Assembly: GCA_046757845.1 (NCBI GenBank)
Contig: JBHHYZ010000007.1
Location: 7,896 to 71,895, forward strand
Direction of reading: 5' to 3'
DNA: 64,000 nt
Source: Gemmatimonadota bacterium
Lineage (GTDB): Bacteria; Gemmatimonadota; Gemmatimonadetes; Palauibacterales; Palauibacteraceae
The notes under the pieces were generated by a model. It was not told where the DNA came from. It was given only the letters and a program-made list of their open reading frames with translations, and searched no databases. Positions 25,175-61,435 of the stretch are shown here, in pieces (positions within the stretch are counted from its first letter, which is position 1; each line of letters starts with the position of its first letter). The position numbers and the translations under genes were made by a program.

Positions 25175-25188
25175 CAGCTGCCTCCCGC

Positions 25189-45444: not shown

Positions 45445-45912
45445 TCACTCGGAGAGCGCGCGAAACTGCTCGTCGGTTGCCGAGATGCCGAGCCACGTCT
45501 CCGCCGCCAGTTGCGCGATTCCCGCCAGGAGCAGGACGCAGCCAATGAGAGCGGCGCCGATGGCCAGCAAGCCCGATCCCTCGGCACCCAGGCCGGCCGC
45601 CCCAATCAGCAGCACGACCAGGATGAACAGGCCGCCCGACAGGTAGAGCGCCAGGAGCGCCCGGTGGGCGAAGCGCGCGCGGCGCCGGTGGCGGGCCGCC
45701 AGGGAGCGGAACCGGCCACGGTCCAGGCCGGAGCCATCCGGGTCCGAAAGCTCTCCCCTCTCGAGCCGCTCCTCGAGCTCTCTCAGGCGCTTCAGGATGG
45801 ACTGCAGACGCTGATTGGTGGACAGGATCAGCATGGCGTTGCCGAGCAGGAGCACCGCCGGCGTCGCCATCGAGGCGATCAGCTCGAACCCGTCTCGCGC
45901 GTTCGGGATCAC
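45445..45912 (-). CDS. DUF2721 family membrane protein
   Basis: GTG 45912 overlaps the upstream TGA as GTGA. Three TM segments plus LSTNQRLQSILKRLRELEERL are typical of DUF2721. The upstream part of ORF 45445..46494 is shadow. Confidence 0.65.
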   Translation of the reverse strand: MIPNARDGFELIASMATPAVLLLGNAMLILSTNQRLQSILKRLRELEERLERGELSDPDGSGLDRGRFRSLAARHRRRARFAHRALLALYLSGGLFILVVLLIGAAGLGAEGSGLLAIGAALIGCVLLLAGIAQLAAETWLGISATDEQFRALSE

Positions 45913-48575
45913 CTCGGGCCGCCGCCGGGCCGCACTCGCCGCGTCCCACGCCGAACCCGCATCAACTCGGCATCGAGATTCCGATAGCTCTGCATGGCGG
46001 CAGACTCCACGTTCGCCTTGTCCACGGCGGCCAGCGCCGCCCGATCCACATCCAGCGCGCCGCACGGTCCCCTGCCCCGGGCGGCTCTCCGGACGGAATC
46101 CGCCCGTTCGGCCCCGCCCGCCGGCGGACGCGCCGTGACGACCGATCGCGCCCCGTCGATCGCCTTGCGAAACAGCGCGATCGACTCCGTGTTCCGGCCG
46201 CGCTTCCAGGCGATATAGCCCTTCAGGTACAAGGCGTCCACACTTTGCTCGTTCACAGAGGTTACCGCGTCCAGCTCCTCGGTCGCCTCCTCCAGATCCC
46301 CTCGTAGCAGGGCCACCTGGCCCAGCCGAAGCAACGGCCCCGTCTCCTCGGAGTTGATCTCCCGGGCGCGCCGAAACTCCCTCTCCGCGCGCTCGAGATC
46401 CAGACCCTCCGGGTGGCTCGGGCACGCGTGCAGGCGCCCGAGCTGGAAATGGACCCGAGCGCTGCCCGGGTCCAGAGCCTCGAGCCTCTCCCACGCTTCC
46501 GCCGCCGCTCTGAAATCTCCGCGCTCCAGCTCCACGTTGCCCAGGTAGTAGAGCGCATCCTCGTGGGTGGAGTCCAGCGTCAGCGCCGCGGCGTATTCCC
46601 GCGCGGCCGTCTCCAGATCCCCCGCGATGCGCGCCCGCGAAGCCTCGCGGTAGCGCTGCCAGAACCTGCGCGTCCGTTCACGCGCCTCGAGGGACCCGCG
46701 CGACGAGACCGACGAGCCCGCCGAATCCGCGCTCCGCCCACCGCCAACCCCCGACGCCACCCGGGCCGGCCTCCCCTCGGCGATCTCCAGAATCCGATCG
46801 GTGGGTGGAGCGGGGACCACCTGCCGCAGACCGCTGGGCCACCGGATCACGAGCGAATCGACAGCCGCCCGGGCTCCGAGTCCGAAATGGACCACGGGGC
46901 TGTTCTGCGACAGATAAGAGCTCTGCACCCCGACTTCGCGCGTCTGGACGGAGCCGCCGGACAGCAGGTCGACTCTCGCGCCGAGCGCCGATCGGTTGCT
47001 CCGCGTCCCCCGCAGGCGCAGCTCCAGCCAGTGGCGTCCCGGGGCGCCCGAATTACGGAGCAGAACCCCAGGCCCCCCGTTGTTCACGATGAACACGTCC
47101 ACGGCCCCGTCGTTGTCGTAGTCGCCGAACGCTGCGCCCCGTCCCACGTACTGCCGGGAGAAGTACTCGCCGGCCACCGGCGAGAGGTCGTAGAAGCCCT
47201 CCTCGGGTCCCCGATTCCAGAACAGCTGATCGGACATCGGGATCAGGCGCTCCGGGTGCTCGGCCTCCTGGAAGGTGCTCCCGTTCACCACCAGGAGATC
47301 GACCCGCCCGTCGTTGTCGTAGTCGAAGAACGAAGTGCCCCACCCCACGAAGTCGAGTGCGATTTGGCCCAATCCGTAGCGGTCCGCCTCATCCATGAAC
47401 TGGAGCGTGTTGGGGGCGGGCGCCTCGAGTGACTCGAAGGCGGAGCGCAGCCTGTTGTCGTAGAACGCGTTCTCCTGGGCGATCCAGTGGGTGACGAACA
47501 GGTCGAGGTCGGAGTCCCCATTCCAGTCTCCCACCGCCAGCCCCATCGCGCCCCGGTAGTCCGCCACCCTCGTCAGATGGCTCACGTCCTCGAAGGTGCC
47601 GTCTCCCCGGTTTCGATACAGGGCGTTGTCGGACACGTCGTTGGCCACGTACAGGTCCGGCCACCCGTCCTGGTCGAAATCGGCCCACGCCGCGGACAGG
47701 CTTCGGCCCTCGGGGTCGCTCACGCCCGCCCGCCCGGCCACCTCCGTGAAGCGGCCGCCCCCCAAATTGTGGAACAAGAGGTTGCGCTCCGGCTCGAACG
47801 ACTCCGGATTCAGGCTGGGTGGGACCTCCACATCGTACTGCCGGCTCGTGGCCCCGCCGTCGAGGGTTTCGTACTTCACGTAGGCGGTCACGTAGAGGTC
47901 CGCCAACCCGTCCCGATCGTAGTCCGCCCACGCGGCCCCCGTCCAGAAGCCGCGAGGCCCGGACAGCCCGGCCTTCGCCGTGCGATCCGTGAACCGGCCG
48001 TCGCCTTCGTTGTGCAGGAGCGTGATCCCGCCGTACGAGGTGATCGCCAGATCCGGATGGCCGTCATTGTCGTAGTCCGTCCACGCGGCGGCCATTCCCC
48101 AGCCGCGCAGATCGATCCCGACGGCCTCGGTCACGTCGGTGAACCGGCCATCTCCTTCGTTGTGGTACAGGGTGGAGCGAGCCGGAGAGGACTTCGCCTG
48201 CGCGGGCCCGAGCGTGAGCGGCCCGACCTCGTTGACCACGAACAGGTCCAGCCAGCCGTCCCCGTCGTAGTCGCCCCACGCCGCGCCGGAGCCCATGTCC
48301 TCGGGAAGCTGATTGGAGCGCCGCCCCGAAAAGTGGCGGAAGCGGATCCCGGCGGCCTCGCTCACATCCTGGAACGTGACCCTCGGATAGTCCTCGGGAA
48401 GCGAGCGGGCCAGCTCGGAGGTGAGTCCCTCCACGTCCTCGCCGGGGCGGTAGGGCGCGGCCGGGGCCCGCAGGAGCCGCAGGCCGCCGATCACCGCCGC
48501 CAGGAACAGGGCGGTGAGCACGCCGCTGATGGCCAGCAGCCGCTTCCGCCGCGGCAGCCGGCTCCAGGCTCGCAC
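45909..48575 (-). CDS. CRTAC1-family protein: FG-GAP/VCBS repeats + ASPIC/UnbV domain + C-terminal TPR repeats
   Basis: 888 aa. N-terminal TM/signal, and repeated DYDGDGWLDLFV / DYDNDGHPDL / DFDQDGWPDLYV / DYDNDGRVDLLV / DYDNDGAVDVFI motifs. ASPIC-type RSNRSALGARV...SYLSQNSPVVHFGLG, then TPR-like helices. Confidence 0.85.
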   Translation of the reverse strand: MRAWSRLPRRKRLLAISGVLTALFLAAVIGGLRLLRAPAAPYRPGEDVEGLTSELARSLPEDYPRVTFQDVSEAAGIRFRHFSGRRSNQLPEDMGSGAAWGDYDGDGWLDLFVVNEVGPLTLGPAQAKSSPARSTLYHNEGDGRFTDVTEAVGIDLRGWGMAAAWTDYDNDGHPDLAITSYGGITLLHNEGDGRFTDRTAKAGLSGPRGFWTGAAWADYDRDGLADLYVTAYVKYETLDGGATSRQYDVEVPPSLNPESFEPERNLLFHNLGGGRFTEVAGRAGVSDPEGRSLSAAWADFDQDGWPDLYVANDVSDNALYRNRGDGTFEDVSHLTRVADYRGAMGLAVGDWNGDSDLDLFVTHWIAQENAFYDNRLRSAFESLEAPAPNTLQFMDEADRYGLGQIALDFVGWGTSFFDYDNDGRVDLLVVNGSTFQEAEHPERLIPMSDQLFWNRGPEEGFYDLSPVAGEYFSRQYVGRGAAFGDYDNDGAVDVFIVNNGGPGVLLRNSGAPGRHWLELRLRGTRSNRSALGARVDLLSGGSVQTREVGVQSSYLSQNSPVVHFGLGARAAVDSLVIRWPSGLRQVVPAPPTDRILEIAEGRPARVASGVGGGRSADSAGSSVSSRGSLEARERTRRFWQRYREASRARIAGDLETAAREYAAALTLDSTHEDALYYLGNVELERGDFRAAAEAWERLEALDPGSARVHFQLGRLHACPSHPEGLDLERAEREFRRAREINSEETGPLLRLGQVALLRGDLEEATEELDAVTSVNEQSVDALYLKGYIAWKRGRNTESIALFRKAIDGARSVVTARPPAGGAERADSVRRAARGRGPCGALDVDRAALAAVDKANVESAAMQSYRNLDAELMRVRRGTRRVRPGGGPR

Positions 48576-48582: not shown

Positions 48583-50715
48583 TCAGTCCGCGGTCCGGGG
48601 AGCCACCGTGATCGTCTTCTCGTCCTCGGAGAGGACCGTCACCGGAGCCGTCATCCCCGCGTCCTCCCCGAACAGGAAGTTGAGCAGGAACTGGTCGAAC
48701 TTGCGGTACAACAGCTTCACCGAGACGTGGAGCGCGGTGACTCTGTGCGGCGCCCGGAAGGCGAACTCACCGTCCAGCGGGACCGTGTCGCCCGGGTCCG
48801 AATCCGAGCGGGCCACCGTCAGGGTGGAATCCGAGAACAGCAGCGCCGGACACTGGAAGGTGAACTCCGCCCGATCGGAGAAGCCCGGGAACACGGCGCG
48901 CTTGTAGCGGACCCCGACCATCTCCCACAGGTTGTGGCGATCGATCAGGTTTCCGTACTGATCCACGGGCTCGGCCTTGAAGATGAACGAGCCCTTGTGG
49001 ATGAAGTGCCGCTCGTCCCGCCCGCCGGATTCGAACACCAGCTGGCCGTCCTGGTCGGTGACCTTCACCTCCAGCCACGCCTGGATGATGTCCAGCGGTC
49101 CGGTCGGAAACTCGTGGCCCACCTTGTTGTTGGTGATCACCGCCTGGATCTTCACCTTCTGGCCCGGGGCCACCCGCTGGGGCACGACCAGCTCCACGGG
49201 GAGCGCCGGCCCGCTCTTCCACTTGTCCGCGATCTCGGGAACCTCGATCTCGCCGCGCAGCCATTTGCGGATCAGCTCCACGTGCTCCTCGGCGCCCGGC
49301 AGCTTGAGGGCCACGGGCACGAACTGGTTGGCGGCCAGGAAACGGTGGCTTCGGTGCTTGCCATCGTCCGGCGTCCGGTTGTAATCCAGGTCGTCGCCGT
49401 TGCCGGGATCCGGCGTGTCCAGCAGGGGCATGTGGCACTCGCGGCATTCGATCGTCTTGCTCGGATCGCCGGGGTGGTTCCAGCGGCTCTTTCGCCAGTT
49501 GTCGTACTGGTTCTGGAGCTGCACCCAACCCACCTGGTTGACCTCCTGATCGATGAACTGCTTGTGGCAGGCCGCGCAGAACTCCGGACTCTTGAACAAC
49601 TTGTGCTGGAGCGTCTCGACGTGGTGCCGGGGGTAGGCGCGGATCAGGAAGTCGCTCACCCGCCTGGCCGCCGCGCCCTCCTTCAGTTCGAACATGTACC
49701 GGTCCGGCTCGGTCATCACGTAGTTCGCGTTGCCCTTGATGTCCGTCTTCTTGATCGCGTGACAGACGACGCAGGAAACCCCTTCCTGGTAGCCGGTCTG
49801 ATTGGTGAGATCCTCCGCGAACACGTTCTTGGTGCCCGAGAACAGGGAGATCGGATCGTGGCAACCCCCGCAATAGCGGGTGGACTCGGCGCCGTTCTGC
49901 TTGGCCATCACGGTCTGCACCGCCTGGAAGGCGGGGTCCATGGCGGAGTAGCGGTGGGCGCTCACCTCCCACTCGTGCTTCACCTGCTCGTGGCACCCGC
50001 CGCTCCCGCAGGTATCCGAGCCGCCCAGCGCGCGCGGGTCCAGCGCACCACCGGTAGCGGTGGTGGCCAGGCTGGGGGCGAAGGGCCGATCCGGACCGTA
50101 CAGGTAGCTGTAGTCGTCGGGGAACTCGTGGCGCAGCTCCACCGGCCGGTACGCGCGGGCCAGGAGCACGGCCACCCCGATCAGCAGGCCCGCCAGGGCC
50201 AACGCGCCGAGGCCGAACCGTCGCTGCGCGGCCAGCACGGGCCGCACCGCCGGGACCGCCCGGGCCCGCAGCGCCCGGACCATCAGGACCACCACGTGCG
50301 GCAGGACGGACCCGATCACCCCGAACGTGGCGATGATGTGGACCAGATCCCACGCGTACCCGATGCGGGTGCCCAGCAGGGCCTGGCCCGTGAGCACCAC
50401 ACCCGTCACCAGGGCCACCAGGGTGGCGGCCATGGCCACGTATCCGGTGAGAACCACGTGGGACAGGCGCATCCTCCGGTAATGGAGCCAGTGCTTGGCC
50501 TGATACCAGGCGAACGGTGTCAGGAAGGCGAGGCCGGCCCCGGTGTGCAGCAGGACCATCACCTGGTTGGGCAGGCTGAACGGAAGCAGCCACATGGACA
50601 GGCCGGTCAGCGTCTCGAACAGAAGGAGCCCTCCCACGCACAGGAGGAGCCGCGACCGCCAACTCTCGTCGAGGGAACGGCGGTTGAGCCCTCCGTTCCC
50701 GGATCTGCTGCTCAT
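48583..50715 (-). CDS. membrane-anchored multihaem cytochrome c (five-helix His-bearing N-terminal domain + five haem-c motifs + beta-rich C-terminal domain)
   Basis: ATG 50715 is preceded by GGAGG. Predicted TM helices carry conserved His (LLHTGAGLAF, VHIIATFGVIGSVLPHV). Haem motifs are CGSGGCH, CGGCH, CVVCH, CAACH and CRECH (nt about 49432-50010). The C-terminal part contains GHEFPTGP. Confidence 0.85.
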   Translation of the reverse strand: MSSRSGNGGLNRRSLDESWRSRLLLCVGGLLLFETLTGLSMWLLPFSLPNQVMVLLHTGAGLAFLTPFAWYQAKHWLHYRRMRLSHVVLTGYVAMAATLVALVTGVVLTGQALLGTRIGYAWDLVHIIATFGVIGSVLPHVVVLMVRALRARAVPAVRPVLAAQRRFGLGALALAGLLIGVAVLLARAYRPVELRHEFPDDYSYLYGPDRPFAPSLATTATGGALDPRALGGSDTCGSGGCHEQVKHEWEVSAHRYSAMDPAFQAVQTVMAKQNGAESTRYCGGCHDPISLFSGTKNVFAEDLTNQTGYQEGVSCVVCHAIKKTDIKGNANYVMTEPDRYMFELKEGAAARRVSDFLIRAYPRHHVETLQHKLFKSPEFCAACHKQFIDQEVNQVGWVQLQNQYDNWRKSRWNHPGDPSKTIECRECHMPLLDTPDPGNGDDLDYNRTPDDGKHRSHRFLAANQFVPVALKLPGAEEHVELIRKWLRGEIEVPEIADKWKSGPALPVELVVPQRVAPGQKVKIQAVITNNKVGHEFPTGPLDIIQAWLEVKVTDQDGQLVFESGGRDERHFIHKGSFIFKAEPVDQYGNLIDRHNLWEMVGVRYKRAVFPGFSDRAEFTFQCPALLFSDSTLTVARSDSDPGDTVPLDGEFAFRAPHRVTALHVSVKLLYRKFDQFLLNFLFGEDAGMTAPVTVLSEDEKTITVAPRTAD

Positions 50716-50786
50716 GATTCCCCGACCTCCGAGCTCATCCATTTGCCGGAACGCCGCCCGCCGGATCGCGGTCCGCGTCCCGCATC

Positions 50787-50809: not shown

Positions 50810-51832
50810 TCAGGGTGTCACCACCCATCGAATTCCGTCTCCCCGGCGGAGTCGATCGAGACCCTCGTTGACCTCCTCCAGCGGCACCGAGCCGCTCACG
50901 ATCGGATCCAGCTGAATGCGACCCGTGCGAACCAGCTCCATGATCTCCGGATACTCCCCGGCACCGCAGCCCAGGCTCCCGACGATCTCCAGCTCGTAGT
51001 ACATGAGCCGCGCCGCCGAGAGCGTCACAGGCTGCCGCGAGTAGCCGATCACGCACAGCCGGCCACCCTTGCGCAGGAAGGAAAAGGCCAGCTGAATCGT
51101 ATCCGGCGATCCGATCGCTTCGAACGCCACATCGACGCCGCCGTCGGTGAGGCTGCGAATCCGGCGATCCGGCCGGTCCACGTCCTGCGGGTTCAGGGTC
51201 TCCCGGGCGCCCAGCTCGCGCGCCAGGGCGAGCCGCTCCTCGTTGAGATCCACGGCGATCACCGAACCCCCCGCCAGGGTCGCGCACTGCACGGCGTTCA
51301 GCCCCACGCCCCCACAGCCGACCACGGCGACCCGGTCGCCGGGCCGCACGCGGCCCCGGTGCTTGACCGCGTGATACGGGGTGGACACGGCATCCGCGAT
51401 CACCGCCGCCTGCTGGAGCGAGATCTCTTCGGGCACCCTCACCAGTTCGACCGCCGGGACCGCCACGTACTCCGCGTACGCCCCGTCCACGTTGTTTCCC
51501 AACATGACGAGATTCTCGCACAGGTTCTCCCGCCCCTGGCGGCAGTAACAGCAGCGGCCGCAGGAGAGCACCGAGGGGACGAGGACCCGATCTCCCTCCT
51601 GCCAGCCGCTCACCTCGGCCCCGATCTCCGCGATCTTACCCGCCGCCTCGTGGCCCAGGATGAGCGGCGGATCCTTGAACGTGGGCACGCCATGGTCCAG
51701 GTAGTGCAGATCCGTGTGGCAGAGTCCGCACGCCGCCACCTCCACCACCACCTCCCCCAGCCCCGGCAGGGGAAGGTCCACTTCCGTCACCTCGAGCGGT
51801 CGCCCGCTTCCGTGAAAGATCGCGGCTCGCAT
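50810..51832 (-). CDS. zinc-dependent MDR alcohol dehydrogenase; candidate 6-hydroxycyclohex-1-ene-1-carbonyl-CoA dehydrogenase (Had-like)
   Basis: 340 aa. Catalytic Zn context CGLCHTDLHYL...GHEAAG, structural Zn CGRCCYCRQGRENLC, and Rossmann VVGCGGVGL. The Had assignment rests on operon context only. Confidence 0.8.
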   Translation of the reverse strand: MRAAIFHGSGRPLEVTEVDLPLPGLGEVVVEVAACGLCHTDLHYLDHGVPTFKDPPLILGHEAAGKIAEIGAEVSGWQEGDRVLVPSVLSCGRCCYCRQGRENLCENLVMLGNNVDGAYAEYVAVPAVELVRVPEEISLQQAAVIADAVSTPYHAVKHRGRVRPGDRVAVVGCGGVGLNAVQCATLAGGSVIAVDLNEERLALARELGARETLNPQDVDRPDRRIRSLTDGGVDVAFEAIGSPDTIQLAFSFLRKGGRLCVIGYSRQPVTLSAARLMYYELEIVGSLGCGAGEYPEIMELVRTGRIQLDPIVSGSVPLEEVNEGLDRLRRGDGIRWVVTP

Positions 51833-51847
51833 GTCGTTCTCTCGCCC

Positions 51848-52639
51848 TCAGGCGGCCACGCGCTGCAGCCGGTAGCGACCCAGCAGGGCCGCCCCCAGCG
51901 CGCCCGCGTACTCGGCATCCGGCGATACGTTGATCGGACACCCCAGCGCGTCGCTCAGCCAGCGTACGAACGCCGGGTTGTGGACCACACCTCCCGTGAG
52001 CGTGACCTCGGGTTCCGGCTTCAGCGGCTTCACCAACGAGGCCACCCGGCCCGTGATGGCGCGATGCGCTCCCGCCAGGATGTCCTCGGTCGGCTTCTCC
52101 TGGCTCACCAGGTTGATCACCTCGGACTCGGCCAGAACCGCGCAGATCGAGGAGATCTCGCACGGAGCCTGGGCTTGCAGCGCGCGGGGTCCGACCTCCT
52201 CCAGCCTCAGCTCCAGCGCCTTGGCCACCCGCTCCAGGAAGCGGCCGGAGCCCGAGGCGCACTTGTCGTTCTGCCGAAACGCCCGGATTCGGCCTTCCGG
52301 GCCGACCCGCATGGCTCGAGTCGTCTGCGCCCCCCCGTCGATGACCGTGCGCGTGCCCGGAAACAGCGCCACGGCGCCGCGCGCGTGACACGTGATCTCG
52401 GTGATCTGGACCTGGCGGAACGGGATCCGGTAGCGCCCGTATCCCGTGGTGGCCACGTATCCGATCTCGTCCGGCTCGATGCCGGCCTGCTCGCAGCACG
52501 CCTGCCGAGCCTTCTCGGCCGCCTGGGCGAAGAACACCCCCGTGGTCGTGCCGGCCCGGGCGATCTCCTCACCGTCCAGGTCCAGGAGGACGGCCTTGGT
52601 GTAGCGCGCGCCCACGTCGATCCCCAGCACGTAGTTCAT
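51848..52639 (-). CDS. bcrD: BcrD/BadG-type ATPase subunit (BadF/BadG/BcrA/BcrD family) of a benzoyl-CoA-reductase-like enzyme
   Basis: Trimmed to [19 protein letters not shown]. Cluster Cys contexts [13 protein letters not shown] and [16 protein letters not shown] overlap with the preceding paralogue. The A/D assignment is by gene order only. Confidence 0.8.
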
Positions 52640-53439
52640 GCCGCCACCTCCGATCCCGCCCCTCGGTGGGCCCGCTCCCACGCGAACAGCGCCGCCCCGA
52701 TCGCCCCCATGTAATGCGAGTCTTCGGAGGCGTTGAGCGGACTGCCGAGCCGTTCTTCGAGCGCGGCCCGCATCCCCGGGTTCCGTGAGACGCCGCCGGT
52801 GAACGTGAACTGCGGCTCCAGCCCGATCCGCCGGATGAGGCCGACGGCCCGCCGCGCGATAGCCCGGTGCACGCCGGCCAGCACATCGCTGACCTTGCGG
52901 CCCCTGGCCAGATGGCTCAGGATCTCGGTCTCCACGAACACGGTGCAGACGTTGGTGATCTTGATCGGAACTCGCGCCTCCAGGGAGAGCGGCCCGATCT
53001 CGCTCAGCTCTAGCCCCATGACCTCGGCGGCCGCTTCCAGGAAGCGCCCCGTTCCGGCGGCGCACTTGTCGTTCATGCAGAAGTCGAGCACCTCGCCGCC
53101 CTCGTCCACCCGGATCGCCTTGGTGTCCTGCCCCCCGATGTCCAGAACCGTCGTGGTCCCGGGAAACACGAAGCTCGCGCCCTTCGCGTGGCAGCTGATC
53201 TCGGTCACCTGGTCGTCTCCGAACGTGACCTTGTAGCGCCCGTAGCCCGTGCCGATCACGTAGCCCACGTCGTGCGCCTCCAGCCCCGCGTCCTCGAGCG
53301 ACACGCCGAAGGAGCGCTCGGCCGCCCGCACCACGTGCGCCCCCGTCTGGGTGAGCGCCCGACCCACGATCCTGCGGTTCTCGTCCAGGAGCACGGCCTT
53401 CGTCTGGGTGGATCCCACATCGACACCGCCTACGACCAT
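52636..53439 (-). CDS. bcrA: BcrA/BadF-type ATPase subunit (BadF/BadG/BcrA/BcrD family)
   Basis: 267 aa. Contains [31 protein letters not shown], and [12 protein letters not shown]. Paralogue of the downstream gene. Confidence 0.8.
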
Positions 53440-53464
53440 CGTTCCCCCCCCTCTCCGTGCGGCC

Positions 53465-54751
53465 TCAGCACGGCGCCGGCTCGTTGAGCACCACGAGCCG
53501 CTGATGCTTGAGACCCTCGAAGAACGCGTCGATCCGGTTCTGAAGCTGCGCCGCCTGGAAGTACCGGGGATCCGCCAGGTCGCTCTCCACGAACAGCGTC
53601 GGCAGACCCATCCGCTCCCGGAGCGCTTCCCTCAGGTCGGCCTGGCCCACCGAGAAGGAGCGGCAGGACTTGACCGAGTGAATGACGATTCCGTCCGCCT
53701 CGTACTCCTCCGCGTAGGCCTGCAGGAGATCCGTTCGAAGACCCAGGTTCAGGTTCGTGTAGCAGTTCAGGCAGTACTCCGCCTGCGATTCGAGCGGCCG
53801 CTCGGGATCGTGGCGGAAGCCGCGGTCGAAGATCCCCCCCACCTTGGCGTAGCTCGATGCCACCGACACGGCGCCCCAGCGCTTGAACATCTCCCAGAAC
53901 GCCCGGAAGTGGGGCCACGGCGGCGGACCCTCCACCACCACCCGGAACCGTTCCTCCTCGATGGGCCCGATCCCGTGCTCGATCCGCTCCTGGATCTCGA
54001 GCCAGGTGGCCTCGTAGAACTCACGGCACTCCGGCAGCCCGCGGAGGATGTATAGGGGAGCCATGAAGAAGACCGCCTCGAAGTACGCGTCCAGCGGCGC
54101 CGGGCGATGCCTGGCGCTCTGGAGGATGCGGGACCACACGTCCTCCACCACCACGCTGTCAGCCAGCATACGGTGGTGAGCCTCGTCGTCGTACGAGCGA
54201 TCCGCGATCGCTTCCAGCCGCGGGATCAGCTCGCGCAACTGGTCGGTCACATAGGCGACATCGTCCGGCGCGAAGTCCTCGGCCTCCCGGCCCCAGTGGC
54301 GCTGGTACGGCACGTCCAGCATCACCAGCGGCGCGCCGTAGTGCTCCGCCAGCGCCTCGAACCATTTGATGTAGGTCCGGCAGCCCGCGTAGTTGCACAG
54401 GAGCACGTCGGGCGGCGGCAGCTTGCCCAGTGGCGAGGTTCCGTCGGTCTGGGCCAGCCCGATGTCGTTCTTCACGTAGCCGCACACATCGGGCGAGTAG
54501 CCCAGGTCCTCGGCGGCCCCGATGAACGTCCCCGCCATCCGCTTGATCCCACACTGCAGCGAGGTGACCTCCGGGTACACCAGGTGGAAGCCGAAGGAGC
54601 GCAGGTACTCGGCGATGTTTCCGGAGATGAACACGTAGGCGACCTTCTCGTCGCGCTCCCGGGCGGTGTTGACCCGGCCGAAATATTCCGCCAGCAGGCG
54701 CTTCTGGAGCTCGCGCCCGGTCCCCTGATGGACGTAGCCGTTCTCAGACAT
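53465..54751 (-). CDS. bcrB: benzoyl-CoA reductase subunit B-like (2-hydroxyacyl-CoA dehydratase/BcrB/BadE family)
   Basis: 428 aa. HgdB/BcrB-type fold blocks ([59 protein letters not shown]). Overlaps the upstream gene by 8 nt. Confidence 0.78.
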
Positions 54752-55988
54752 AGGCGCCTCTCAGCGGGCTCGGGCCGCGAGCCCCCTCCTCCTCGAAGAA
54801 CAGGATGGACTCGACGAACGTCTCGACCTGGGTCTGAATGGCGTCGAACAGGCCCGCCTTCTCCTCGAACTCGAACAGGACGTAGGGCAGGCCGTGGCGT
54901 TCTGCTTCGTCCCGCAGCAGCACCACGTCGTACAGCGCCGGCTCGCAGAACTTGGCCGAGGCGAAGATCACCCCCTCGGCCCCCGAGCGGGTCAGCTTCT
55001 CCCCGAACGCGGCCACGCGCGACTCGCGACCCACGTAGTGCACGGCGCAGTCCGGGGCGCCGGCCAGGAACGCGCCGGCCAGCGCGTCCAGCGGGTCCTC
55101 CGTGTCCGCGGGCACATCCTCGGAGTACCAGCGCAGGCCCAGCAGCAGGTCGTCGTCGACCACGTAGCACCCGGCCTCTTCGATCATCTCGATCATGGCC
55201 ACCGGCATCTGCTCGCAGAACGAGCCTTCCAGCACCACCCGGATCGCGTCGCGCGGCTTGCGCTCGCGCGCCTCCGCCTCCTCCAGCGCGCGCCGCAGCA
55301 GCTCGTTGTGCTCCTCCCGCGGCATGAACCCGCCGGCCCGGAACAGCCGATAGCTCTCGGCCAGCGCCAGCTTCTCCGGGTGCGCCCTCCGCAGCCCGCG
55401 CAGGGCCCGCATGAGTCGCCGGTTCTCGTTGTAGACGGCCAGCGACGCGTTGAGCTCGTCGACGCCGACCTCCCGGCCCCGCAACTCCTCCAGTCCGGAC
55501 AAGACCCGGGCGAGCTCGGAGCGCAGATAGACCCGGGCGCTCGGGGCATTCGCCTGCTCCGGCCAGTGGCAGTAGCCGATGAACTGGTTCGGGAAGTTGC
55601 GCTTCCAGATCCCGGAGAGATTGCGGGCCACGTCGCAGATGGACGGGAACAGGAACCCGTCCACCATCGGGATCCGCCCGGCCAGGCCCAGCTCCAGTGT
55701 GCTCTTGGCGATCGAGCACACGAAGCTCTGGATCCGGGCGTCCGCCCGCTCGATCTCGATGATCTGTCCGCCGCCGTACAGGTGGGCGGGCAAGAAGCCG
55801 GCGGCGTGCACCAGCTCCTCGGGCGTGTACACCGGGAAGCACCCGATCACCCGACAGTCGCGCCCCCTCTTGCGGTAATCGGCCAGCGCCTGGAGGTCCG
55901 GGTCCGCGAAGGTGCGCTCCGACAGGACGTCCAGCTGTTCGAGCACCGGTCGCGCCGGATCCACCCAACCTTGCGCGCGGTCCATCAT
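54744..55988 (-). CDS. bcrC: benzoyl-CoA reductase subunit C-like (BcrC/BadD family)
   Basis: Trimmed to MMDRAQGWVD (ATG 55988 overlaps the upstream TGA). Contains VIGCFPVYTPEELVHAAGFLP, SFVCSIAKSTLE, SICDVARN, and SAKFCEPALYD. The upstream 206 codons of ORF 54744..56606 are shadow. Confidence 0.78.
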   Translation of the reverse strand: MMDRAQGWVDPARPVLEQLDVLSERTFADPDLQALADYRKRGRDCRVIGCFPVYTPEELVHAAGFLPAHLYGGGQIIEIERADARIQSFVCSIAKSTLELGLAGRIPMVDGFLFPSICDVARNLSGIWKRNFPNQFIGYCHWPEQANAPSARVYLRSELARVLSGLEELRGREVGVDELNASLAVYNENRRLMRALRGLRRAHPEKLALAESYRLFRAGGFMPREEHNELLRRALEEAEARERKPRDAIRVVLEGSFCEQMPVAMIEMIEEAGCYVVDDDLLLGLRWYSEDVPADTEDPLDALAGAFLAGAPDCAVHYVGRESRVAAFGEKLTRSGAEGVIFASAKFCEPALYDVVLLRDEAERHGLPYVLFEFEEKAGLFDAIQTQVETFVESILFFEEEGARGPSPLRGAYV

Positions 55989-56770
55989 CGCCCGCTCCAG
56001 CGCGGGGTCCGCTTCTCGACGAACGCCCGCAGCCCCTCCACCGCGTCCGCGGTCGACATGAGCTCGTCCACGTAGAGGCGGCCCGCCTCGGCCATGGCGG
56101 CGGTCCACCCCTCCTCCGCCCGGCCCACCGCCCGCTTGGTCAGCCGCAGCGCCGCCGGGCTGTGCCGGGCGATCCGGCGCGCGAGCGCCTCGGCCGCCTC
56201 GTCCAACCGGCCGTCCTCGACCACGGAGCACACCAGCCCCAGGCGTCTGGCCTGACGGGCCGTGATCAGATCGCCCGTGAACAGGAGCTCGCGCGCCGCC
56301 GCGGCTCCCACCACCTGAGGGAGCCGCGCGCAGGCGGCGGGCGGGAACACGCCCAGCCCGATCTCCGGCTGGCCGAAGCGGGCGGTCCGGGCGGCCACGA
56401 TCAGATCGGCGGCCTGGGCCAGCTCGAACCCGCCGCCCACGCAACGCCCCCGCACGACGGCCACCGTGGGGGCCGGAAACTCCGCCAGGACGCGAACCGT
56501 GTCCAGGAACTCGGGGATCAGCGCTTCGTGCTCCGGCGGCAGGTGCTCGGCCACGTCCGCCCCCGCCGAGAAGTGCTCGCCGGCGGCGGAGAGCAACAGC
56601 ACGCACAGCTCGCGCTCCCGCGCCAGCCCCGCCATCGCCTCGCGCAGACGGGCCAGCACGTCCCGGGTCAGGATGTTGTAGGGCGGTCGATCGAGGATCA
56701 GCCGGGCGACCCGTTTCTGGCGCTCGACCCGGACCGATTTCGCGGACGTGGAGATGGCCATCTCACTCAT
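55985..56770 (-). CDS. enoyl-CoA hydratase/crotonase; candidate cyclohexa-1,5-diene-1-carbonyl-CoA hydratase (Dch-like)
   Basis: About 261 aa. Crotonase blocks FSAGADV and VRGRCVGGGFELAQAADLIVAA...FGQPEIGLGVFP. Start at ATG 56770 (8-nt overlap) or ATG 56761. Confidence 0.8.
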   Translation of the reverse strand: MSEMAISTSAKSVRVERQKRVARLILDRPPYNILTRDVLARLREAMAGLARERELCVLLLSAAGEHFSAGADVAEHLPPEHEALIPEFLDTVRVLAEFPAPTVAVVRGRCVGGGFELAQAADLIVAARTARFGQPEIGLGVFPPAACARLPQVVGAAAARELLFTGDLITARQARRLGLVCSVVEDGRLDEAAEALARRIARHSPAALRLTKRAVGRAEEGWTAAMAEAGRLYVDELMSTADAVEGLRAFVEKRTPRWSGR

Positions 56771-57872
56771 CTCCCGTCGCCCCATCCTCTCCGGCCAGCG
56801 GCGCGCCACAGGCACCGCAGTACGCGTGCCCGGCCGGCAGGTCCGTCGCTCCGCACTGCCCGCAGGTTCGCAGCGGCGGCCCCCAGACCGCTTCCGATGA
56901 CTCGCCCCGGGCGGCCCGTTCGCGAATCAGCTGGTAGCGCGGGGCGCGCTTCTCGACGAAGGCCCGCATGCCCTCGACCGGCTCCCAACACGCGTAGTGG
57001 AGGGCCAGCCAGTCCTGGGCGTGCCGCACCGTGGAGCTCCAGGCGAAGTCCTTGAGGAAGTTCACCTGCTGCTTCGTGTACCGGGTGCACTCGGGGAAGG
57101 TGGCCAGGAGCCGCCGGCACAGGTCCTCCACGAACGCATCCAGGCGCGACAGATCGATCGAGTAGCCGTCCTCGCCCTTCTGCGCCTTGCGGATCTCCTC
57201 CGTCGAGGCCTCCTCGGCCCAGCCGTCCGCCCGGCGCACCGACGGCACCACCCAGTTGACCAACCCCCACTCCAGCGCCTTGACGGCGGGAATCGGCTCG
57301 TTGAGCAACAGGATCTCGCGGGCCCGCTTGTCGCCCACCACCAGGGGGAGCCATTGGGTGGAGCCCCCGCAGGCCACCGAGCCCACCTGGGAGCCGACCT
57401 GCTTGATGTAGGCGTGCTGGGCCATCACGGTGAGATCGCAGGCCAGCTGGCTCTCGTTCCCGCCCCCCACCGCCATCCCGTTGAGCCGGGCGATCACGGG
57501 CTTGCCGGTGTTGAGGATGCTCTCGACGTAGGAGCGGAACAGCGCCATGTACTTCCAGTAATCGCGCGGCGCGGGCACGTACAGGTCCGCGTACTCCTTG
57601 ACGTCACCCCCCGTGCAGAAGGCCCGCGTTCCCGCGCCGGTGAATACGATGACGCCGACGGAGTCGTCGAAGCTCGCATCCCGAAACGCGGCTGCGAGCT
57701 CCTCGAGCGCCGCGGTGGAGTACGCGTTGTAGCGCTCCGGCCGGTGGATGGTGATGCGGGCGACCCCATCCGCCTTGTCGTACAGGACCTCGCGCAGATT
57801 CAGCGCCGCGGGATCTCGCGGCTCGAATCGTCGCTGCGCTTCCGGCGTCCCCGTCTCTGTTCGCGTCGTCAT
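56763..57872 (-). CDS. long crotonase-superfamily protein (MenB/Oah-like; candidate 6-oxocyclohex-1-ene-1-carbonyl-CoA hydrolase) with C-terminal Cys4 zinc-ribbon tail
   Basis: 369 aa. Contains FCTGGDVKEY, ARLNGMAVGGGNESQLACDLTVMA, an insertion (SVRRADGWAEEASTEEIRKAQKGEDGYSIDLSRLDAFVEDL), and the tail CGQCG-x11-CGACG. Confidence 0.75.
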   Translation of the reverse strand: MTTRTETGTPEAQRRFEPRDPAALNLREVLYDKADGVARITIHRPERYNAYSTAALEELAAAFRDASFDDSVGVIVFTGAGTRAFCTGGDVKEYADLYVPAPRDYWKYMALFRSYVESILNTGKPVIARLNGMAVGGGNESQLACDLTVMAQHAYIKQVGSQVGSVACGGSTQWLPLVVGDKRAREILLLNEPIPAVKALEWGLVNWVVPSVRRADGWAEEASTEEIRKAQKGEDGYSIDLSRLDAFVEDLCRRLLATFPECTRYTKQQVNFLKDFAWSSTVRHAQDWLALHYACWEPVEGMRAFVEKRAPRYQLIRERAARGESSEAVWGPPLRTCGQCGATDLPAGHAYCGACGAPLAGEDGATGDE

Positions 57873-57947: not shown

Positions 57948-60071
57948 TCAGTGGCCCTGCAGCTTCTCGGGCGCCTCCAGCGTGTTGGTCAGATCCGCCA
58001 CATAAGCCGGATCGTCCTTCTTCAAGGCCGGCCACCGCGCCCCCGGATCGGCGAGCAGGATCCCACCGATCTCCCCCATCGCCGGCTCGGGATCGGGCCG
58101 GCCCGTGGGGTTGTCGTACGCGACCACGATTCGGTACTGGTGGTCGCGGTGAATCGGGATGCCGCCCCGGGCCCACAGCAGAGCGGTCGGAACCCCCGTC
58201 ACGTGTCCGTTCTCATCCCGCTGCGGCTCGGCCTGCCAGACCACCTGGCCCGCCGTCACGTCCTCCAGGCGGATCGAGCGGGCCCGATCGTGCAGGTGAG
58301 CCCCTATGGCCACCAACCGCCCATCGATGGCGGGGCTCCCGGTCCAGGAGCGCTCCGTGCCACCCGCCGGCACGACGAAGGACTTCCGCCCCACCGGACC
58401 CATCACATCCAGGTAGAAGGGGTAGACATCCCTCGGGTGCACCGGGTTGGCGCCGGCTCTCGTGTAGGACAGAAACACGTGCAGGTAGGCTTCCGGGACG
58501 GCCGCCTTCGTGGGGCGCGCGAACATCGCGCTCACCATGAGCCGGGTCCCCTTCTTCACCGGATAGCCCAGGAAGCGCGGCATCTCCTGGCTTCCCGTCT
58601 CCCGCCCGGCCGCCATCACGCGCCGCGGGATCTCGGAGAACAGCTCCCGCTGATCGGGATCGATCAGGTTGATGTGGTGGAGCAGCTCGTCGGGCAGCTT
58701 GCGTCCCGCCCCGTCCGTCATCTCCCACCGGAACCCGTGCAACCATCCTTCCAGAGGCAGATCGATCAGCTGGACCGGCAGCCGCACGTGGTGTCCGCCC
58801 GGCGAGAGGCGGGCCGGGCCCACCACCAGCTCCAGCGCATTCTCGTCTGGATGGTCCACGATGCGGACCAGATGGTCTCGTCCCACCGGCAACGGAGGCG
58901 CCTGGGCGCGCGGACCCGATTCCGGGGCGACGGGGACCGGCTCGCGGAACCCCGGACCCTCCATCGTGGTGCTCGCCAGCACGTTCCGGTAGTCCGTCGC
59001 GTACAGGGGATCCCGCGGATCGGCCGGCGGCCAGTCGGCGGTGTTGCCCGGGATGAACACACCGGCCACCGACCCCATGCCGCCTTCGGGAATCGTCTTG
59101 CCGGTGGGGTTGTCGTAGGTCGCCGACACCCGGTAGACGTGGCTCGGATCGATCGGCACCCCCAGCTGCCCCTCCATGAACATCTTCACGGGGACGGATT
59201 CCAGCTGGCCGTCGGGCCGAGCCGTGGGGTGGATCTCATACAGCACTTTCCCCTCGGTCACGTCCTCGAGCTTCAGGTCCTGGGCGTAGGGGTGGAGGTG
59301 GCCTCCCACGGCGAGGATCGCTCCCGGGATCGCCGGACTGCCCTCCCAGGAGTGGACGGACCGGCCGGGCGGCAGGTCGAACGCCTTGCTGCCCAATGGA
59401 AAGCCCGCATCCATGTGAAACGGGTAGACGCGGTACAGCGGCGTCGTGCCCCGACTGTAGTCGAGGATCAGCCGGACGCGGACCCCCCGATAGCTCTGGG
59501 CGGTGGGGTTGTGCAGCATGGTGAGAAGGATGAACGGATCCCCTCCCTTGAGCGGCAGACCGAACAGCTCCTTGGGCACCCGTTGCGCCCCCGTCTCGCT
59601 GCCGGACGCGAACACGCGCCGCATGATCGGGAGGAACAGCTCCCGGCGCGTGGGGTCCAGCAGGTTGAAGTGGTGGATGACCAGGTGCGGCACCGGGTTG
59701 CCGTCCCGATCCACCGCCTCGGTCCGATAGCCGTGCACCATCAGGTCGAACGGAATCTCTCCGCGCTGCGGCATCATCTGTTGCAGCTTGTGGTGCGACG
59801 TGTGCGCCGGCAGGTCGATGGGCCCCAGCGCCAGCACCAACTCCTGCCGATCCGGATGATCCCGGATCGTGAGCAGATCGGACCCGAGCTCCTGGGCCCC
59901 GAGCGTACGGGCCGCCTGGGGCGCGAAGCACAGCACGGCCAGGACTGAGGCACCGCGCAGGGCCAGCCGGCCCGCATCTCCGCCGTCCGTCCTCCGCCTC
60001 CGGCGAACCGTCTGGTATCGACGCCGGATCGCACCGGCACGAATCGGGGTCATCCTCCGCCTCCTGCTCAT
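57948..60071 (-). CDS. secreted protein with two tandem His-rich domains resembling type II copper monooxygenase (PHM/DBH-like) catalytic cores
   Basis: 707 aa. Arg-rich N-terminus, then a signal-like segment ASVLAVLCFAPQAARTLGAQE. Two units of about 300 aa share the conserved motifs HH, WxHG(Y/F)R, (I/L)HH(F/I)NL(L/I)DP, G(G/A)HLH, YDNPTG and (G/A)MG. Confidence 0.7.
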   Translation of the reverse strand: MSRRRRMTPIRAGAIRRRYQTVRRRRRTDGGDAGRLALRGASVLAVLCFAPQAARTLGAQELGSDLLTIRDHPDRQELVLALGPIDLPAHTSHHKLQQMMPQRGEIPFDLMVHGYRTEAVDRDGNPVPHLVIHHFNLLDPTRRELFLPIMRRVFASGSETGAQRVPKELFGLPLKGGDPFILLTMLHNPTAQSYRGVRVRLILDYSRGTTPLYRVYPFHMDAGFPLGSKAFDLPPGRSVHSWEGSPAIPGAILAVGGHLHPYAQDLKLEDVTEGKVLYEIHPTARPDGQLESVPVKMFMEGQLGVPIDPSHVYRVSATYDNPTGKTIPEGGMGSVAGVFIPGNTADWPPADPRDPLYATDYRNVLASTTMEGPGFREPVPVAPESGPRAQAPPLPVGRDHLVRIVDHPDENALELVVGPARLSPGGHHVRLPVQLIDLPLEGWLHGFRWEMTDGAGRKLPDELLHHINLIDPDQRELFSEIPRRVMAAGRETGSQEMPRFLGYPVKKGTRLMVSAMFARPTKAAVPEAYLHVFLSYTRAGANPVHPRDVYPFYLDVMGPVGRKSFVVPAGGTERSWTGSPAIDGRLVAIGAHLHDRARSIRLEDVTAGQVVWQAEPQRDENGHVTGVPTALLWARGGIPIHRDHQYRIVVAYDNPTGRPDPEPAMGEIGGILLADPGARWPALKKDDPAYVADLTNTLEAPEKLQGH
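57981..59879 (-). repeat. intragenic tandem duplication at protein level (unit 1 nt 58977-59879, unit 2 nt 57981-58877)
   Basis: Manual alignment of aa 65-365 against aa 399-697 gives a constant offset of 332-334 aa for every conserved His/Met motif. Nucleotide identity is low, so the duplication is old. Confidence 0.8.
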
Positions 60072-60129: not shown

Positions 60130-60729
60130 TCACGCCGACCTCGCCGCGGGGGGCCACGAGAGCGCCAGTCCCCCGACCAGGTGCTCCGCGAACCGAGCGC
60201 CCAGCTCCGGCGCGCTCATCGAACCGTCCGGATCGTACCAGCGGGCGATCCAGTTGATCGCCCCCAGCAGAGCCAGAGTCGCGATCTTCGGGTCCACGGG
60301 CCGAAACTCCCCGGCTTCCACGCCCTCGGCCACCAGCTTCCGGACGCTCATCTCGTACCGGTCCCGGCGGGCCACGACCTCCGCTTGATGTTCCCGCGAC
60401 AGAGCCGGCACCTCGAAGGCCAGGGGAGAGCCTTGAAGAAGCTCGGTCATCACCCGGACGTGTTCTCGGATGACCTGCCCCAGCCGCTCCGTGGCCGTAT
60501 CATATCGGGTCCGCGCTTCGTCGAGCACGCGCTCCAGCTCGCTCAGGGAGCGGCGGTGGCACTCGTATAGGATGGACTCCTTATCGGGAAAATAATGGTA
60601 CAGCGCGGTCTTTCTCAGACCCAGGCGCCCGGCGATGTCCTCCAGGGTCGTCCCGTGGTAGCCCTTCTCGCGAAACGCGAGGAGAGCGGAGTGGAGGATC
60701 TCGTCCCGCCGCCGCAGCCGCTTCTTCAT
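60130..60729 (-). CDS. TetR/AcrR family transcriptional regulator
   Basis: Trimmed to MKKRLRRRDEILHSALLAFREKGYHGTTLEDIAGRLGLRKTALYHYFPDKESIL (TetR HTH). Possible longer N-terminus from ATG 60801 or 60816. Sits 58 nt upstream of the tandem-domain gene. Confidence 0.85.
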   Translation of the reverse strand: MKKRLRRRDEILHSALLAFREKGYHGTTLEDIAGRLGLRKTALYHYFPDKESILYECHRRSLSELERVLDEARTRYDTATERLGQVIREHVRVMTELLQGSPLAFEVPALSREHQAEVVARRDRYEMSVRKLVAEGVEAGEFRPVDPKIATLALLGAINWIARWYDPDGSMSAPELGARFAEHLVGGLALSWPPAARSA

Positions 60730-60800
60730 GACGTGCGGCGTGGGCCGCGGCGGACTCGGTCGCCCGGGGGCGGCCTGGGATCCGGCGGAGGCGGCTGGCA

Positions 60801-60970
60801 TTTTTCTCGAACGCATGGTAAAAATATTTAAGGTTGTTGGCTCCCTGTCAACCGTCGCCGAGATGCGGAAGTTCCCGGCACCGCGCATCCGTCACCGGAC
60901 TTGCAGGCGGCCGGACCGGATCCAATGATTAAGGATACAAAGGTATGAAAGGGGGTCGGCAGACGCCAGA
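60801..60970. promoter_or_regulatory. divergent TetR / Rrf2 intergenic control region with AT-rich patches
   Basis: tttttctcgaacgcatggtaaaaatatttaaggttgttgg (60801-60840) and tccaatgattaaggatacaaaggtatgaaaggggg (60921-60955). The second contains the short palindrome ATAC-aaag-GTAT. These are the lowest-GC stretches in the window. Confidence 0.4.
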
Positions 60971-61435
60971 ATGCTCTATTCCCTCACCTGCGAATACGCG
61001 ATTCGCGCGCTGACGTATCTGGCCCAACGCCCGCCCGGCCGACTGTCCCTGCTCGGTGACATCGCGGAGGCGTGCGACCTCCCCCGTCCGTTTCTGGGAA
61101 AGATCCTCCAGGATCTGGTCCGGCACGGGTTCCTGCGGTCCTCACGGGGACCGAGCGGCGGTTACGGGCTGGCCTATCCTCCGGCGGAGATCACCGTGCT
61201 GCAGATCAAGCAGGTGTTCGACGGACTCGAGGATCTGGAGCGCTGCGCGGTGGGACTGGACCCCTGCTCCGATGAGACCCCCTGTCCTCTCCACGAGCGC
61301 TTCAAGCCGTTGCGGGCGGCGATCCTCGCCTACCTGGAGGAGACGACGCTGGACGACCTGGTGCGCGGCCTGTGGGAGAAACAGGCGTTGCTGGAGCGGG
61401 CGAGGATCCGGGCCGGCCTGGCCAGGGAGTCCTGA
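60971..61435 (+). CDS. Rrf2 family transcriptional regulator with Fe-S type Cys3 motif (IscR/NsrR/BadM-like)
   Basis: 154 aa. N-terminus MLYSLTCEYAIRALTYLA and wHTH. Cys92-x6-Cys99-x5-Cys105 followed by His108 (CAVGLDPCSDETPCPLH, nt 61244-61294). Confidence 0.88.
   Translation: MLYSLTCEYAIRALTYLAQRPPGRLSLLGDIAEACDLPRPFLGKILQDLVRHGFLRSSRGPSGGYGLAYPPAEITVLQIKQVFDGLEDLERCAVGLDPCSDETPCPLHERFKPLRAAILAYLEETTLDDLVRGLWEKQALLERARIRAGLARES

Follow-up and report, generated by a model that had tools for sequence, protein, structure and literature searches.

The window analyzed here, a 64-kb stretch of contig JBHHYZ010000007.1 from a Gemmatimonadota bacterium, holds a real and intact seven-gene operon on the minus strand (positions 50810–57872), whose products resemble the benzoyl-CoA reductase and ring-opening enzymes of Thauera aromatica. 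In the direction of transcription it encodes a long crotonase of the MenB/BadI/Oah subfamily, termed type 1 (56763–57872, 369 aa), a short crotonase as a Dch-like candidate (55985–56770, 261 aa), a BcrC-like subunit (54744–55988, 414 aa), a BcrB-like subunit (53465–54751, 428 aa), an alpha-type ATPase similar to BcrA and MbdQ (ATPase 1; 52636–53439, 267 aa), a delta-type ATPase similar to BcrD and MbdP (ATPase 2; 51848–52639, 263 aa), and a zinc-dependent medium-chain dehydrogenase as a Had-like candidate (50810–51832, 340 aa). Both crotonases match Pfam ECH_1, both large subunits HGD-D, both ATPases BcrAD_BadFG, and the dehydrogenase ADH_N plus ADH_zinc_N. The genes are translationally coupled—with junctions of −8, −4, −8, +25, −4, and +15 nt in gene order—and each starts with ATG and stops with TGA, while a GGAG- or GAGG-like (Shine–Dalgarno-like) sequence precedes most of them. 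Genes predicted separately on short Logan contigs from this population have identical 369-, 414-, and 428-aa products. The G+C content of about 0.69 to 0.72 over the operon matches the rest of the window, G+C at third codon positions (GC3) is high in the gene frames that passed the filter (0.86–0.91), and the codon-position G+C marks the frames as coding. One promoter-like site before an upstream TetR-family gene and one terminator-like site were found, neither count being above shuffle expectation. An earlier interpretation made without database searches (the sequence-only reading) had described this layout with its overlaps, cysteine motifs, and domain families, all of which were recovered exactly when the sequence was rechecked.

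The reference for family assignment were the NCBIfam equivalog models of the Thauera-type pathway: TIGR02263, TIGR02260, TIGR02259, and TIGR02261 for BcrCBAD, and TIGR03189, TIGR03201, and TIGR03200 for Dch, Had, and Oah. For all seven proteins the best equivalog match is the corresponding model of this pathway (Oah, Dch, BcrC, BcrB, BcrA, BcrD, and Had), which agrees with the proposal of a class I benzoyl-CoA reductase-type core of four subunits in C-B-A-D order, accompanied by two crotonases and a zinc-dependent dehydrogenase. The label "Thauera-type" given to the operon by the sequence-only reading is borne out as far as the best models are concerned, but not in the sense of equivalog membership, as every one of the seven scores stays below its cut-off.

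The two large subunits were compared with profile models and solved structures. The B subunit reaches 396.8 bits on the BcrB model TIGR02260 (cut-off 486.55), followed by HadB with 168.5 and BzdO with 116 bits; the C subunit reaches 331 bits on the BcrC model TIGR02263 (cut-off 421.15), followed by HadC with 213.8 and BzdN with 117.5 bits. The double-cubane model yields 64 and 122 bits for the two proteins. In a search of the PDB, the B subunit is closest to MbdO (272.7 bits) and the C subunit to MbdN (245.6 bits), each at 37 to 38% identity; HadB (138 bits) and BzdO (109 bits) follow for the former, HadC (180.8 bits) and BzdN (121 bits) for the latter. Calibration of the BcrB model is instructive: MbdO, which belongs to a solved reductase, obtains 221 bits, compared with 397 bits for the B subunit of the window and 401 to 456 bits for four of its relatives. 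Hence, a score below the cut-off is no argument against reductase function, and the clade of the window lies nearer to canonical BcrB than MbdO does. On the residue level, Cys90, Cys124, and Cys363 of the B subunit are invariant in 65 clade members and recur in MbdO and HadB, and Cys91, Cys118, and Cys348 of the C subunit align with cysteines of MbdN and HadC. A three-cysteine [4Fe-4S] site is predicted from these residues in each large subunit. By sequence, the core is thus placed closer to characterized reductases than to 2-hydroxyacyl-CoA dehydratases. When PLSDB plasmids were searched by tblastn for the canonical references, only proteins of 22 to 26% identity came up, annotated—if at all—as "2-hydroxyacyl-CoA dehydratase family."

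The two ATPases are 46% identical to each other, are encoded by genes overlapping by 4 nt, and remain in tandem in about 66 related loci. ATPase 1 carries Cys126 as well as Cys165 within a VCTV motif, ATPase 2 carries Cys127 as well as Cys166 within an ICAV motif. The cysteines of ATPase 1 align with Cys127 and Cys166 of HgdC (PDB 1hux)—the ligands of its bridging cluster—and with those of MbdQ and MbdP. Both proteins exceed the cut-off of 125.4 bits of the domain-level activase model TIGR00241 (252.5 bits for ATPase 1, 210.2 bits for ATPase 2). Among the more specific models, of which BcrA and BcrD are equivalogs, ATPase 1 obtains 213.4 bits on BcrA (cut-off 578), 191 on BzdQ, and 141 on BcrD, and ATPase 2 obtains 163.3 bits on BcrD (cut-off 312.85), 161 on BcrA, and 156 on BzdQ. 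In the PDB, ATPase 1 matches MbdQ with 358.1 bits at 63% identity (HgdC, 234 bits); ATPase 2 matches MbdQ with 229.2 and MbdP with 191.5 bits at 40 to 45% identity and has the CASG and GGxQT motifs in common with MbdP. The best BcrA stretch of ATPase 1 corresponds to model positions 216 to 432 of 432, so that the BcrA-specific segment appears to be missing from the 267-aa protein. Two ATPases of minimal size had been taken as unusual for a benzoyl-CoA reductase. This premise is wrong because MbdQ (269 aa) and MbdP (273 aa) are small as well and the enlargement is limited to alpha subunits of the BcrA/BadF type; the BzdQ model, for its part, comprises 293 positions. With two HGD-D paralogues, two different ASKHA ATPases, and the cluster-ligand cysteines in place, the core is predicted to belong to class I in the broad sense.

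The accessory enzymes are assigned less sharply. The short crotonase has its best match in the Dch model TIGR03189 with 194.2 bits (cut-off 292.5), closely followed by EchA19, a generic enoyl-CoA hydratase, with 183 bits, and is found in most but not all related loci. It is a candidate cyclohexa-1,5-diene-1-carbonyl-CoA hydratase. The 340-aa dehydrogenase matches the Had model TIGR03201 with 252.2 bits (cut-off 338.65), with IolM next at 222.8 bits, and a Had-like protein from a cluster with a true Oah likewise stays under this cut-off (268 bits). Most related loci, among them clusters that carry a true Oah, encode orthologues of 54 to 60% identity, and the protein bears a catalytic Cys38 with a GHE motif as well as the structural zinc ligands Cys91, Cys94, Cys97, and Cys105. 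We regard it as a candidate 6-hydroxycyclohex-1-ene-1-carbonyl-CoA dehydrogenase.

The long crotonase departs from the Thauera-type set. On the Oah model TIGR03200 it obtains 211.5 bits at a cut-off of 464.45, compared with 162.6 bits for BadI and 162.4 bits for MenB, and its best stretch is confined to the N-terminal core (residues 38–217 on model positions 39–218 of 360). The profile check on this protein called for by the sequence-only reading hence fell short of the cut-off: its name "oah" fits the ring-opening slot of the operon but not membership in the Oah family. The description as MenB-like fared better, MenB being the closest solved structure in the PDB search. At its C terminus the protein carries a zinc ribbon (56808–56864, minus strand) formed by Cys337, Cys340, Cys352, and Cys355 in a CxxC-x11-CxxC arrangement. 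Type-1 crotonases occur in Gemmatimonadota, Eisenbacteria, Acidobacteriota, Zixibacteria, Thermoplasmata, and one Planctomycetota locus. An alignment shows the ribbon motif CxxCG-x-CGxCGA to be kept in those of the first five groups and in L068, whereas the true Oah proteins from Bacteroidota and Planctomycetota do not have it. One homologue, P0315, carries Pfam PF13248 in a precomputed table.

These true Oah proteins allow for a direct comparison. Those of loci L003 (Bacteroidota) and L002 (Planctomycetota), relatives whose B subunits are about 60% identical to that of the window, score 554.6 and 486.2 bits, above the cut-off, as opposed to 211 to 220 bits for the long crotonases of the window and of locus L001, which obtain about 162 to 168 bits on BadI and MenB. 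They occupy the same operon position as the long crotonase of the window, have the AFCTGG...EY...P..Y..YM and GS...GG motifs in common with it, and the Oah proteins of related clusters are 33 to 39% identical to it; type 1 differs by a shorter and variable internal insertion and by the C-terminal ribbon. More than 120 clusters of homologues at 73 to 81% identity exist, mainly from Gemmatimonadota, a few of them labeled "6-oxocyclohex-1-ene-1-carbonyl-CoA hydrolase" by JGI. Profile scores and motifs make the long crotonase a sister type to Oah within the C–C-bond-active crotonase branch, outside the Oah equivalog. Its operon position and its crotonase branch make it a probable candidate for the ring-opening hydrolase.

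The module is widespread. Homologues of the B subunit number more than 2000 at E < 1e-20 and are named either "benzoyl-CoA reductase subunit B" or "2-hydroxyacyl-CoA dehydratase." A locus scan with one genome per GTDB species retrieved 71 loci, every one from metagenome-assembled genomes (MAGs). The nearest, a Gemmatimonadota MAG, shows 82 to 90% identity; further ones at 51 to 66% come from Eisenbacteria, Latescibacterota, Bacteroidota/Ignavibacteria, Acidobacteriota, Planctomycetota, Zixibacteria, Tectomicrobia, and Thermoplasmata archaea, with L073 as an outlier at 40%. In line with the nearest locus, Gemmatimonadota is the likely lineage of the window, a possibility that the sequence-only reading had raised. 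According to a tblastn census, the arrangement of long crotonase, usually a short-chain dehydrogenase/reductase (SDR), short crotonase, C, B, A, D, and zinc-dependent alcohol dehydrogenase is found again in about 70 loci, which represent at least nine phyla. Near-complete Gemmatimonadota genomes display the order TetR, crotonase, SDR, crotonase, C, B, A, D, small open reading frame (ORF), and zinc-dependent alcohol dehydrogenase; the operon of the window is without the SDR gene and the small ORF of these sister clusters. The SDR of related loci is FabG-like and might catalyze the subsequent step of the pathway as a 3-hydroxypimelyl-CoA dehydrogenase. A neighbor-joining tree of B subunits—clade members plus MbdO, rooted on HadB—follows the phyla, and MbdO groups with, but outside, the clade of the window. 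Recent horizontal transfer of the operon was considered and rejected on the grounds of the uniform G+C content and of this tree.

The Bacteroidota/Ignavibacteria clusters have B subunits 59 to 63% and Had-like proteins 53 to 58% identical to those of the window. The Bacteroidota loci encode a molybdenum hydroxylase similar to the alpha subunit of 4-hydroxybenzoyl-CoA reductase (909.5 bits, cut-off 994.55), the alpha subunit of an indolepyruvate:ferredoxin oxidoreductase (689.2 bits, above the cut-off of 650.9), a thiolase, a FadB-like protein, and an acyl-CoA dehydrogenase. Going by these family matches, the gene set is consistent as a pathway: aromatic 2-oxo acids and 4-hydroxybenzoyl-CoA would pass via benzoyl-CoA to β-oxidation, and reduced ferredoxin would come from the pathway's own oxidoreductase. 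A DUF2889 protein of about 154 aa is kept between the SDR and short crotonase genes in L003 (7597–8061) and in other Bacteroidota/Ignavibacteria loci, and an HMGL-like gene together with an aconitase_C-like gene lies upstream in clusters of the Bacteroidota type. Type-1 clusters of Gemmatimonadota, Planctomycetota, and Thermoplasmata adjoin a beta-eliminating lyase gene similar to tryptophanase and tyrosine phenol-lyase (NF009709, 616–669 bits; L001 13907–15286, L059 about 3059–4426, L085 18562–19917, L079 4475–5953, as well as L047, L052, and L062). This neighborhood hints at a link to the breakdown of aromatic amino acids; no such lyase gene lies in the window.

The set of genes and their order, the family assignments, the cysteines placed to bind the clusters, and the conserved synteny lead us to infer that the operon likely encodes a class I ATP-dependent aryl-CoA dearomatizing reductase together with the enzymes processing its product, with benzoyl-CoA as the likeliest substrate. 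ATPases 1 and 2 would heterodimerize, with a [4Fe-4S] cluster bridging them via one cysteine pair per subunit. This module would receive an electron of low potential, the probable donor being a ferredoxin whose gene lies in another part of the genome, and ATP hydrolysis would push the electron on to the heterodimer of the BcrB- and BcrC-like subunits, at whose three-cysteine [4Fe-4S] sites the aromatic ring of the thioester might be reduced to a cyclic dienoyl-CoA. The short crotonase would then hydrate the diene, the zinc-dependent dehydrogenase would oxidize the resulting hydroxyl group, and the zinc-ribbon crotonase would open the ring hydrolytically, giving a pimelyl-CoA derivative. Control of the operon might be exerted by the upstream TetR-family protein as a repressor.

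Several points weigh against this assignment. All seven proteins score under the equivalog cut-offs, the B and C subunits share just 37 to 38% identity with their nearest characterized counterparts MbdO and MbdN, the Dch-like and Had-like assignments hang on narrow score margins plus context, and the long crotonase falls outside the Oah family with its 211 bits on the N-terminal core. Every recovered locus of the clade stems from a MAG or metagenome, and we know of no clade member that has been assayed. The B-subunit tree covers MbdO as its reductase reference, canonical BcrB and BadE being represented by the NCBIfam scores calibrated with MbdO instead. In addition, the 64-kb window contains no ferredoxin, no aromatic-acid CoA ligase, and no 2-oxoacid:ferredoxin oxidoreductase, as the sequence-only reading had already remarked: Pfam finds no AMP-binding ligase, Fer4, or POR domain among the about 40 ORFs of the window, and the ferredoxin motif CxxCxxCxxxCP occurs in none of its frames. 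Nor is a small ferredoxin gene consistently present across 80 related loci in a motif scan. Both the electron donor and the activating ligase must have their genes outside the window.

The strongest competitor keeps architecture and mechanism and changes the physiological substrate—to hydroxy-, methyl-, or amino-benzoyl-CoA, or to a heteroaromatic or partly reduced ring CoA ester—with the zinc-ribbon crotonase performing a correspondingly different ring cleavage. The missed equivalog cut-offs would fit such a change, as would the specialization of the closest solved relative for 3-methylbenzoyl-CoA, the replacement of canonical Oah by the type-1 crotonase in Gemmatimonadota, Acidobacteriota, Eisenbacteria, Zixibacteria, and Thermoplasmata, and the lyase gene that repeatedly adjoins type-1 clusters in three phyla. 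However, the B, C, ATPase, and Had-like proteins are 45 to 66% identical to those of Bacteroidota and Planctomycetota clusters bearing a true Oah, and in the Bacteroidota this Oah points, along with the 4-hydroxybenzoyl-CoA reductase-like enzyme, to benzoyl-CoA. The B-subunit tree gives no sign of a separate substrate-specific lineage, and class I reductases are typically promiscuous for ring-substituted analogues. We therefore consider a different physiological substrate rather unlikely. It is similarly rather unlikely that the type-1 clusters represent a distinct, ancient, and vertically inherited non-proteobacterial pathway of aryl-CoA dearomatization, which would differ from the Thauera, Azoarcus, and Mbd systems in substrate, ring-cleavage chemistry, or electron donor; the zinc-ribbon crotonase in the place of Oah, the lack of a dedicated ferredoxin gene, and the frequent lyase and hemerythrin-type neighbors would, on that doubtful account, be its features.

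Far less probable is a 2-hydroxyacyl-CoA dehydratase of the HgdAB/HadBC/FldBC type with its activator, serving amino-acid fermentation, whose enoyl-CoA product the crotonases and the dehydrogenase would act on. Such an assignment could appeal to the HGD-D domains of both large subunits, to the activase model TIGR00241 matched by both ATPases, to the name "2-hydroxyacyl-CoA dehydratase" given to many homologues by NCBI, and to the peptidase-rich genome neighborhood. Yet the large subunits clearly score lower on the dehydratase models (HadB 168 and HadC 214 bits vs BcrB 397 and BcrC 331 bits), and the B subunit is 26% identical to HadB, compared with 38% to MbdO. Two different tandem ATPase genes rather than a single activator are found in the about 66 loci mentioned, Pfam and the ORFs of the window reveal no CoA-transferase or 2-hydroxyacid dehydrogenase in the cluster or the window, and relatives carry a true Oah and, in Bacteroidota, also the 4-hydroxybenzoyl-CoA reductase-like enzyme. 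It is most improbable that the genes are a defunct or degenerating remnant, or paralogues brought together by chance without joint function: the SDR gene and the small ORF of sister clusters are missing and an unrelated gene of 707 codons has been inserted behind the TetR gene, but all seven frames are intact with ATG starts, Shine–Dalgarno-like sequences, and 4- or 8-nt overlaps, GC3 is high, the cluster ligands are conserved, and synteny is kept across phyla.

The surroundings of the operon add two upstream genes that, like the zinc ribbon, go beyond the sequence-only reading. The TetR-family regulator (60130–60888, minus strand; Pfam TetR_N and TetR_C_24) likely has an internal true start: it is called with 199 aa (start 60729) or with 223 aa on the sister contigs L076 and L077. 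In L001, L005, L059, and L061, the long crotonase gene is immediately preceded by an orthologue of 47 to 70% identity, TetR_N/TetR_C_24 genes take the same upstream place in L083 to L085, and the presence of a TetR gene upstream of the cluster is conserved in Gemmatimonadota and Eisenbacteria. In the PDB, 3dcf and 3vpr are the best matches, followed by the FadR, KstR2, and DarR types, with MbdR (4uds) reaching 35 bits. By family and position, the protein is probably a repressor of the operon that responds to acyl-CoA.

Between the TetR gene and the operon, and co-directional with both, a 707-aa secreted protein is encoded (57948–60071, minus strand), a tandem duplication of a unit of about 330 aa. 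It has no Pfam or NCBIfam match; its family counts 83 homologues in 5.8 billion proteins, mostly Gemmatimonadota hypotheticals of about 390 aa, in which HH...HxH...M residues are invariant. In the AlphaFold2 model (mean pLDDT 90.9), the top 22 Foldseek matches are to peptidylglycine alpha-hydroxylating monooxygenase (PHM) or dopamine beta-hydroxylase (DBH), the best with E = 4e-11, and the modeled fold is that of a bacterial two-copper monooxygenase similar to PHM and DBH. A gene for a copper-monooxygenase fold is oddly sited within an operon for an oxygen-sensitive enzyme. It is not found at the same position in L001, L059, and L083 to L085, and is probably a lineage-specific insertion, predicted to stand outside the pathway. 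Single-domain homologues follow a small ferredoxin gene and precede fpg in L081 and L082. The closest Gemmatimonadota relative encodes, between its TetR and long-crotonase genes, a polytopic membrane protein of 334 to 342 aa (L059 5775–6803; L001 15305–16309) with cysteine-rich loops (CNSICP, CPSCTLCTSPGC), which has no NCBIfam match and no domain in a precomputed Pfam table. A relationship between the 707-aa protein and this membrane protein was rejected, as they show no similarity.

Downstream of the Had-like gene lie, on the minus strand, genes for a membrane-anchored multiheme cytochrome c with four CxxCH motifs (48583–50742) and for an FG-GAP/ASPIC/TPR protein (45909–48575). The pair follows Had in the Gemmatimonadota locus L070 (70% and 55% identity) and flanks the cluster in the Acidobacteriota locus L066 (58% and 56%), and L080 carries a more distant FG-GAP/ASPIC protein (31%) after the ATPases; this may reflect functional linkage or merely conserved synteny. 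On the other side, upstream of the TetR gene, are located an Rrf2-family regulator (60971–61435, plus strand), which is retained in L059 with 65% identity, and a protein with DUF2249 and ScdA_N domains (61440–63641, minus strand). Hemerythrin genes, or in L084 a possible Had–hemerythrin fusion, are found at Had in the sister clusters (L001, L084, and L085). The Rrf2, DUF2249/ScdA_N, and hemerythrin genes could serve oxygen or NO sensing or Fe–S repair beside an oxygen-sensitive Fe–S enzyme. Peptidases and amidases that are secreted or large abound in the window (S41, penicillin amidase, M24, two M16, and two S9) and are joined by an RND efflux pump; the stretches concerned are 5871–7538, 14325–16931, 19417–20748, 22269–25978, 32341–35814, and 42518–45961. 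This richness fits a proteolytic lifestyle, in which aromatic amino acids could feed the pathway.

To our knowledge, class I benzoyl-CoA reductases have been characterized mainly in a few Proteobacteria. The clade described here spreads over Gemmatimonadota, Acidobacteriota, Bacteroidota, Planctomycetota, and even Thermoplasmata archaea, groups that abound in soil and sediment and are rarely regarded as anaerobic degraders of aromatics. If the clade is active, the anoxic breakdown of benzoate-type intermediates—possibly derived from aromatic amino acids, lignin monomers, or pollutants—would be far wider than culture work suggests. As biochemical targets, it offers a reductase core that is, by the BcrB-model score of its B subunit, nearer to BcrBC than MbdNO is and that is combined with Mbd-like small ATPases, as well as a zinc-ribbon crotonase in place of Oah. 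The gain is nevertheless incremental, a widespread branch of a known enzyme family, because genomic predictions of bcrABCD have already been published for related phyla of the Fibrobacteres–Chlorobi–Bacteroidetes (FCB) group (bioRxiv 10.1101/2023.07.10.548433). According to the same study, bcr genes are absent from 37 further FCB MAGs, one Gemmatimonadetes genome among them.

Among the known systems, BcrCBAD of Thauera aromatica likewise consists of four distinct subunits in C-B-A-D order with conserved Fe–S ligand cysteines, and its accessory set of short crotonase, zinc-dependent dehydrogenase, and long crotonase is matched in the window. The differences lie in the sub-cut-off scores of all seven proteins, in the alpha ATPase, which at 267 aa is not enlarged, and in the long crotonase, which belongs to another subfamily and bears a zinc ribbon. 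Furthermore, there is no fdx or korAB near the operon of the window, whereas the Thauera cluster includes genes for a ferredoxin and a 2-oxoglutarate:ferredoxin oxidoreductase. The Azoarcus-type BzdNOPQ (PDB 8s02; TIGR03190–03192) has the same class I four-subunit architecture with small ATPases, but its large subunits are distant at 109 to 121 bits to those of the window. HadBC/HadI and HgdC (PDB 3o3m, 4eht, and 1hux) share the superfamily, with three-cysteine sites in HGD-D and a cluster of the Cys127/Cys166 type in the ASKHA ATPase. The dehydratases use a single homodimeric activator and are typically accompanied by genes for a CoA-transferase and a 2-hydroxyacid dehydrogenase; the window, in contrast, has two different ATPases and none of these partners. 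The closest counterpart is the 3-methylbenzoyl-CoA reductase MbdONQP (PDB 9g87, 9gai, 9gal, and 9gba). Its name implies the gene order O-N-Q-P rather than the C-B-A-D of the window. Nevertheless, both of its ATPases are as small as those of the window and have the cysteine ligands in common with them, and among solved structures it is the nearest to each of the four core subunits.

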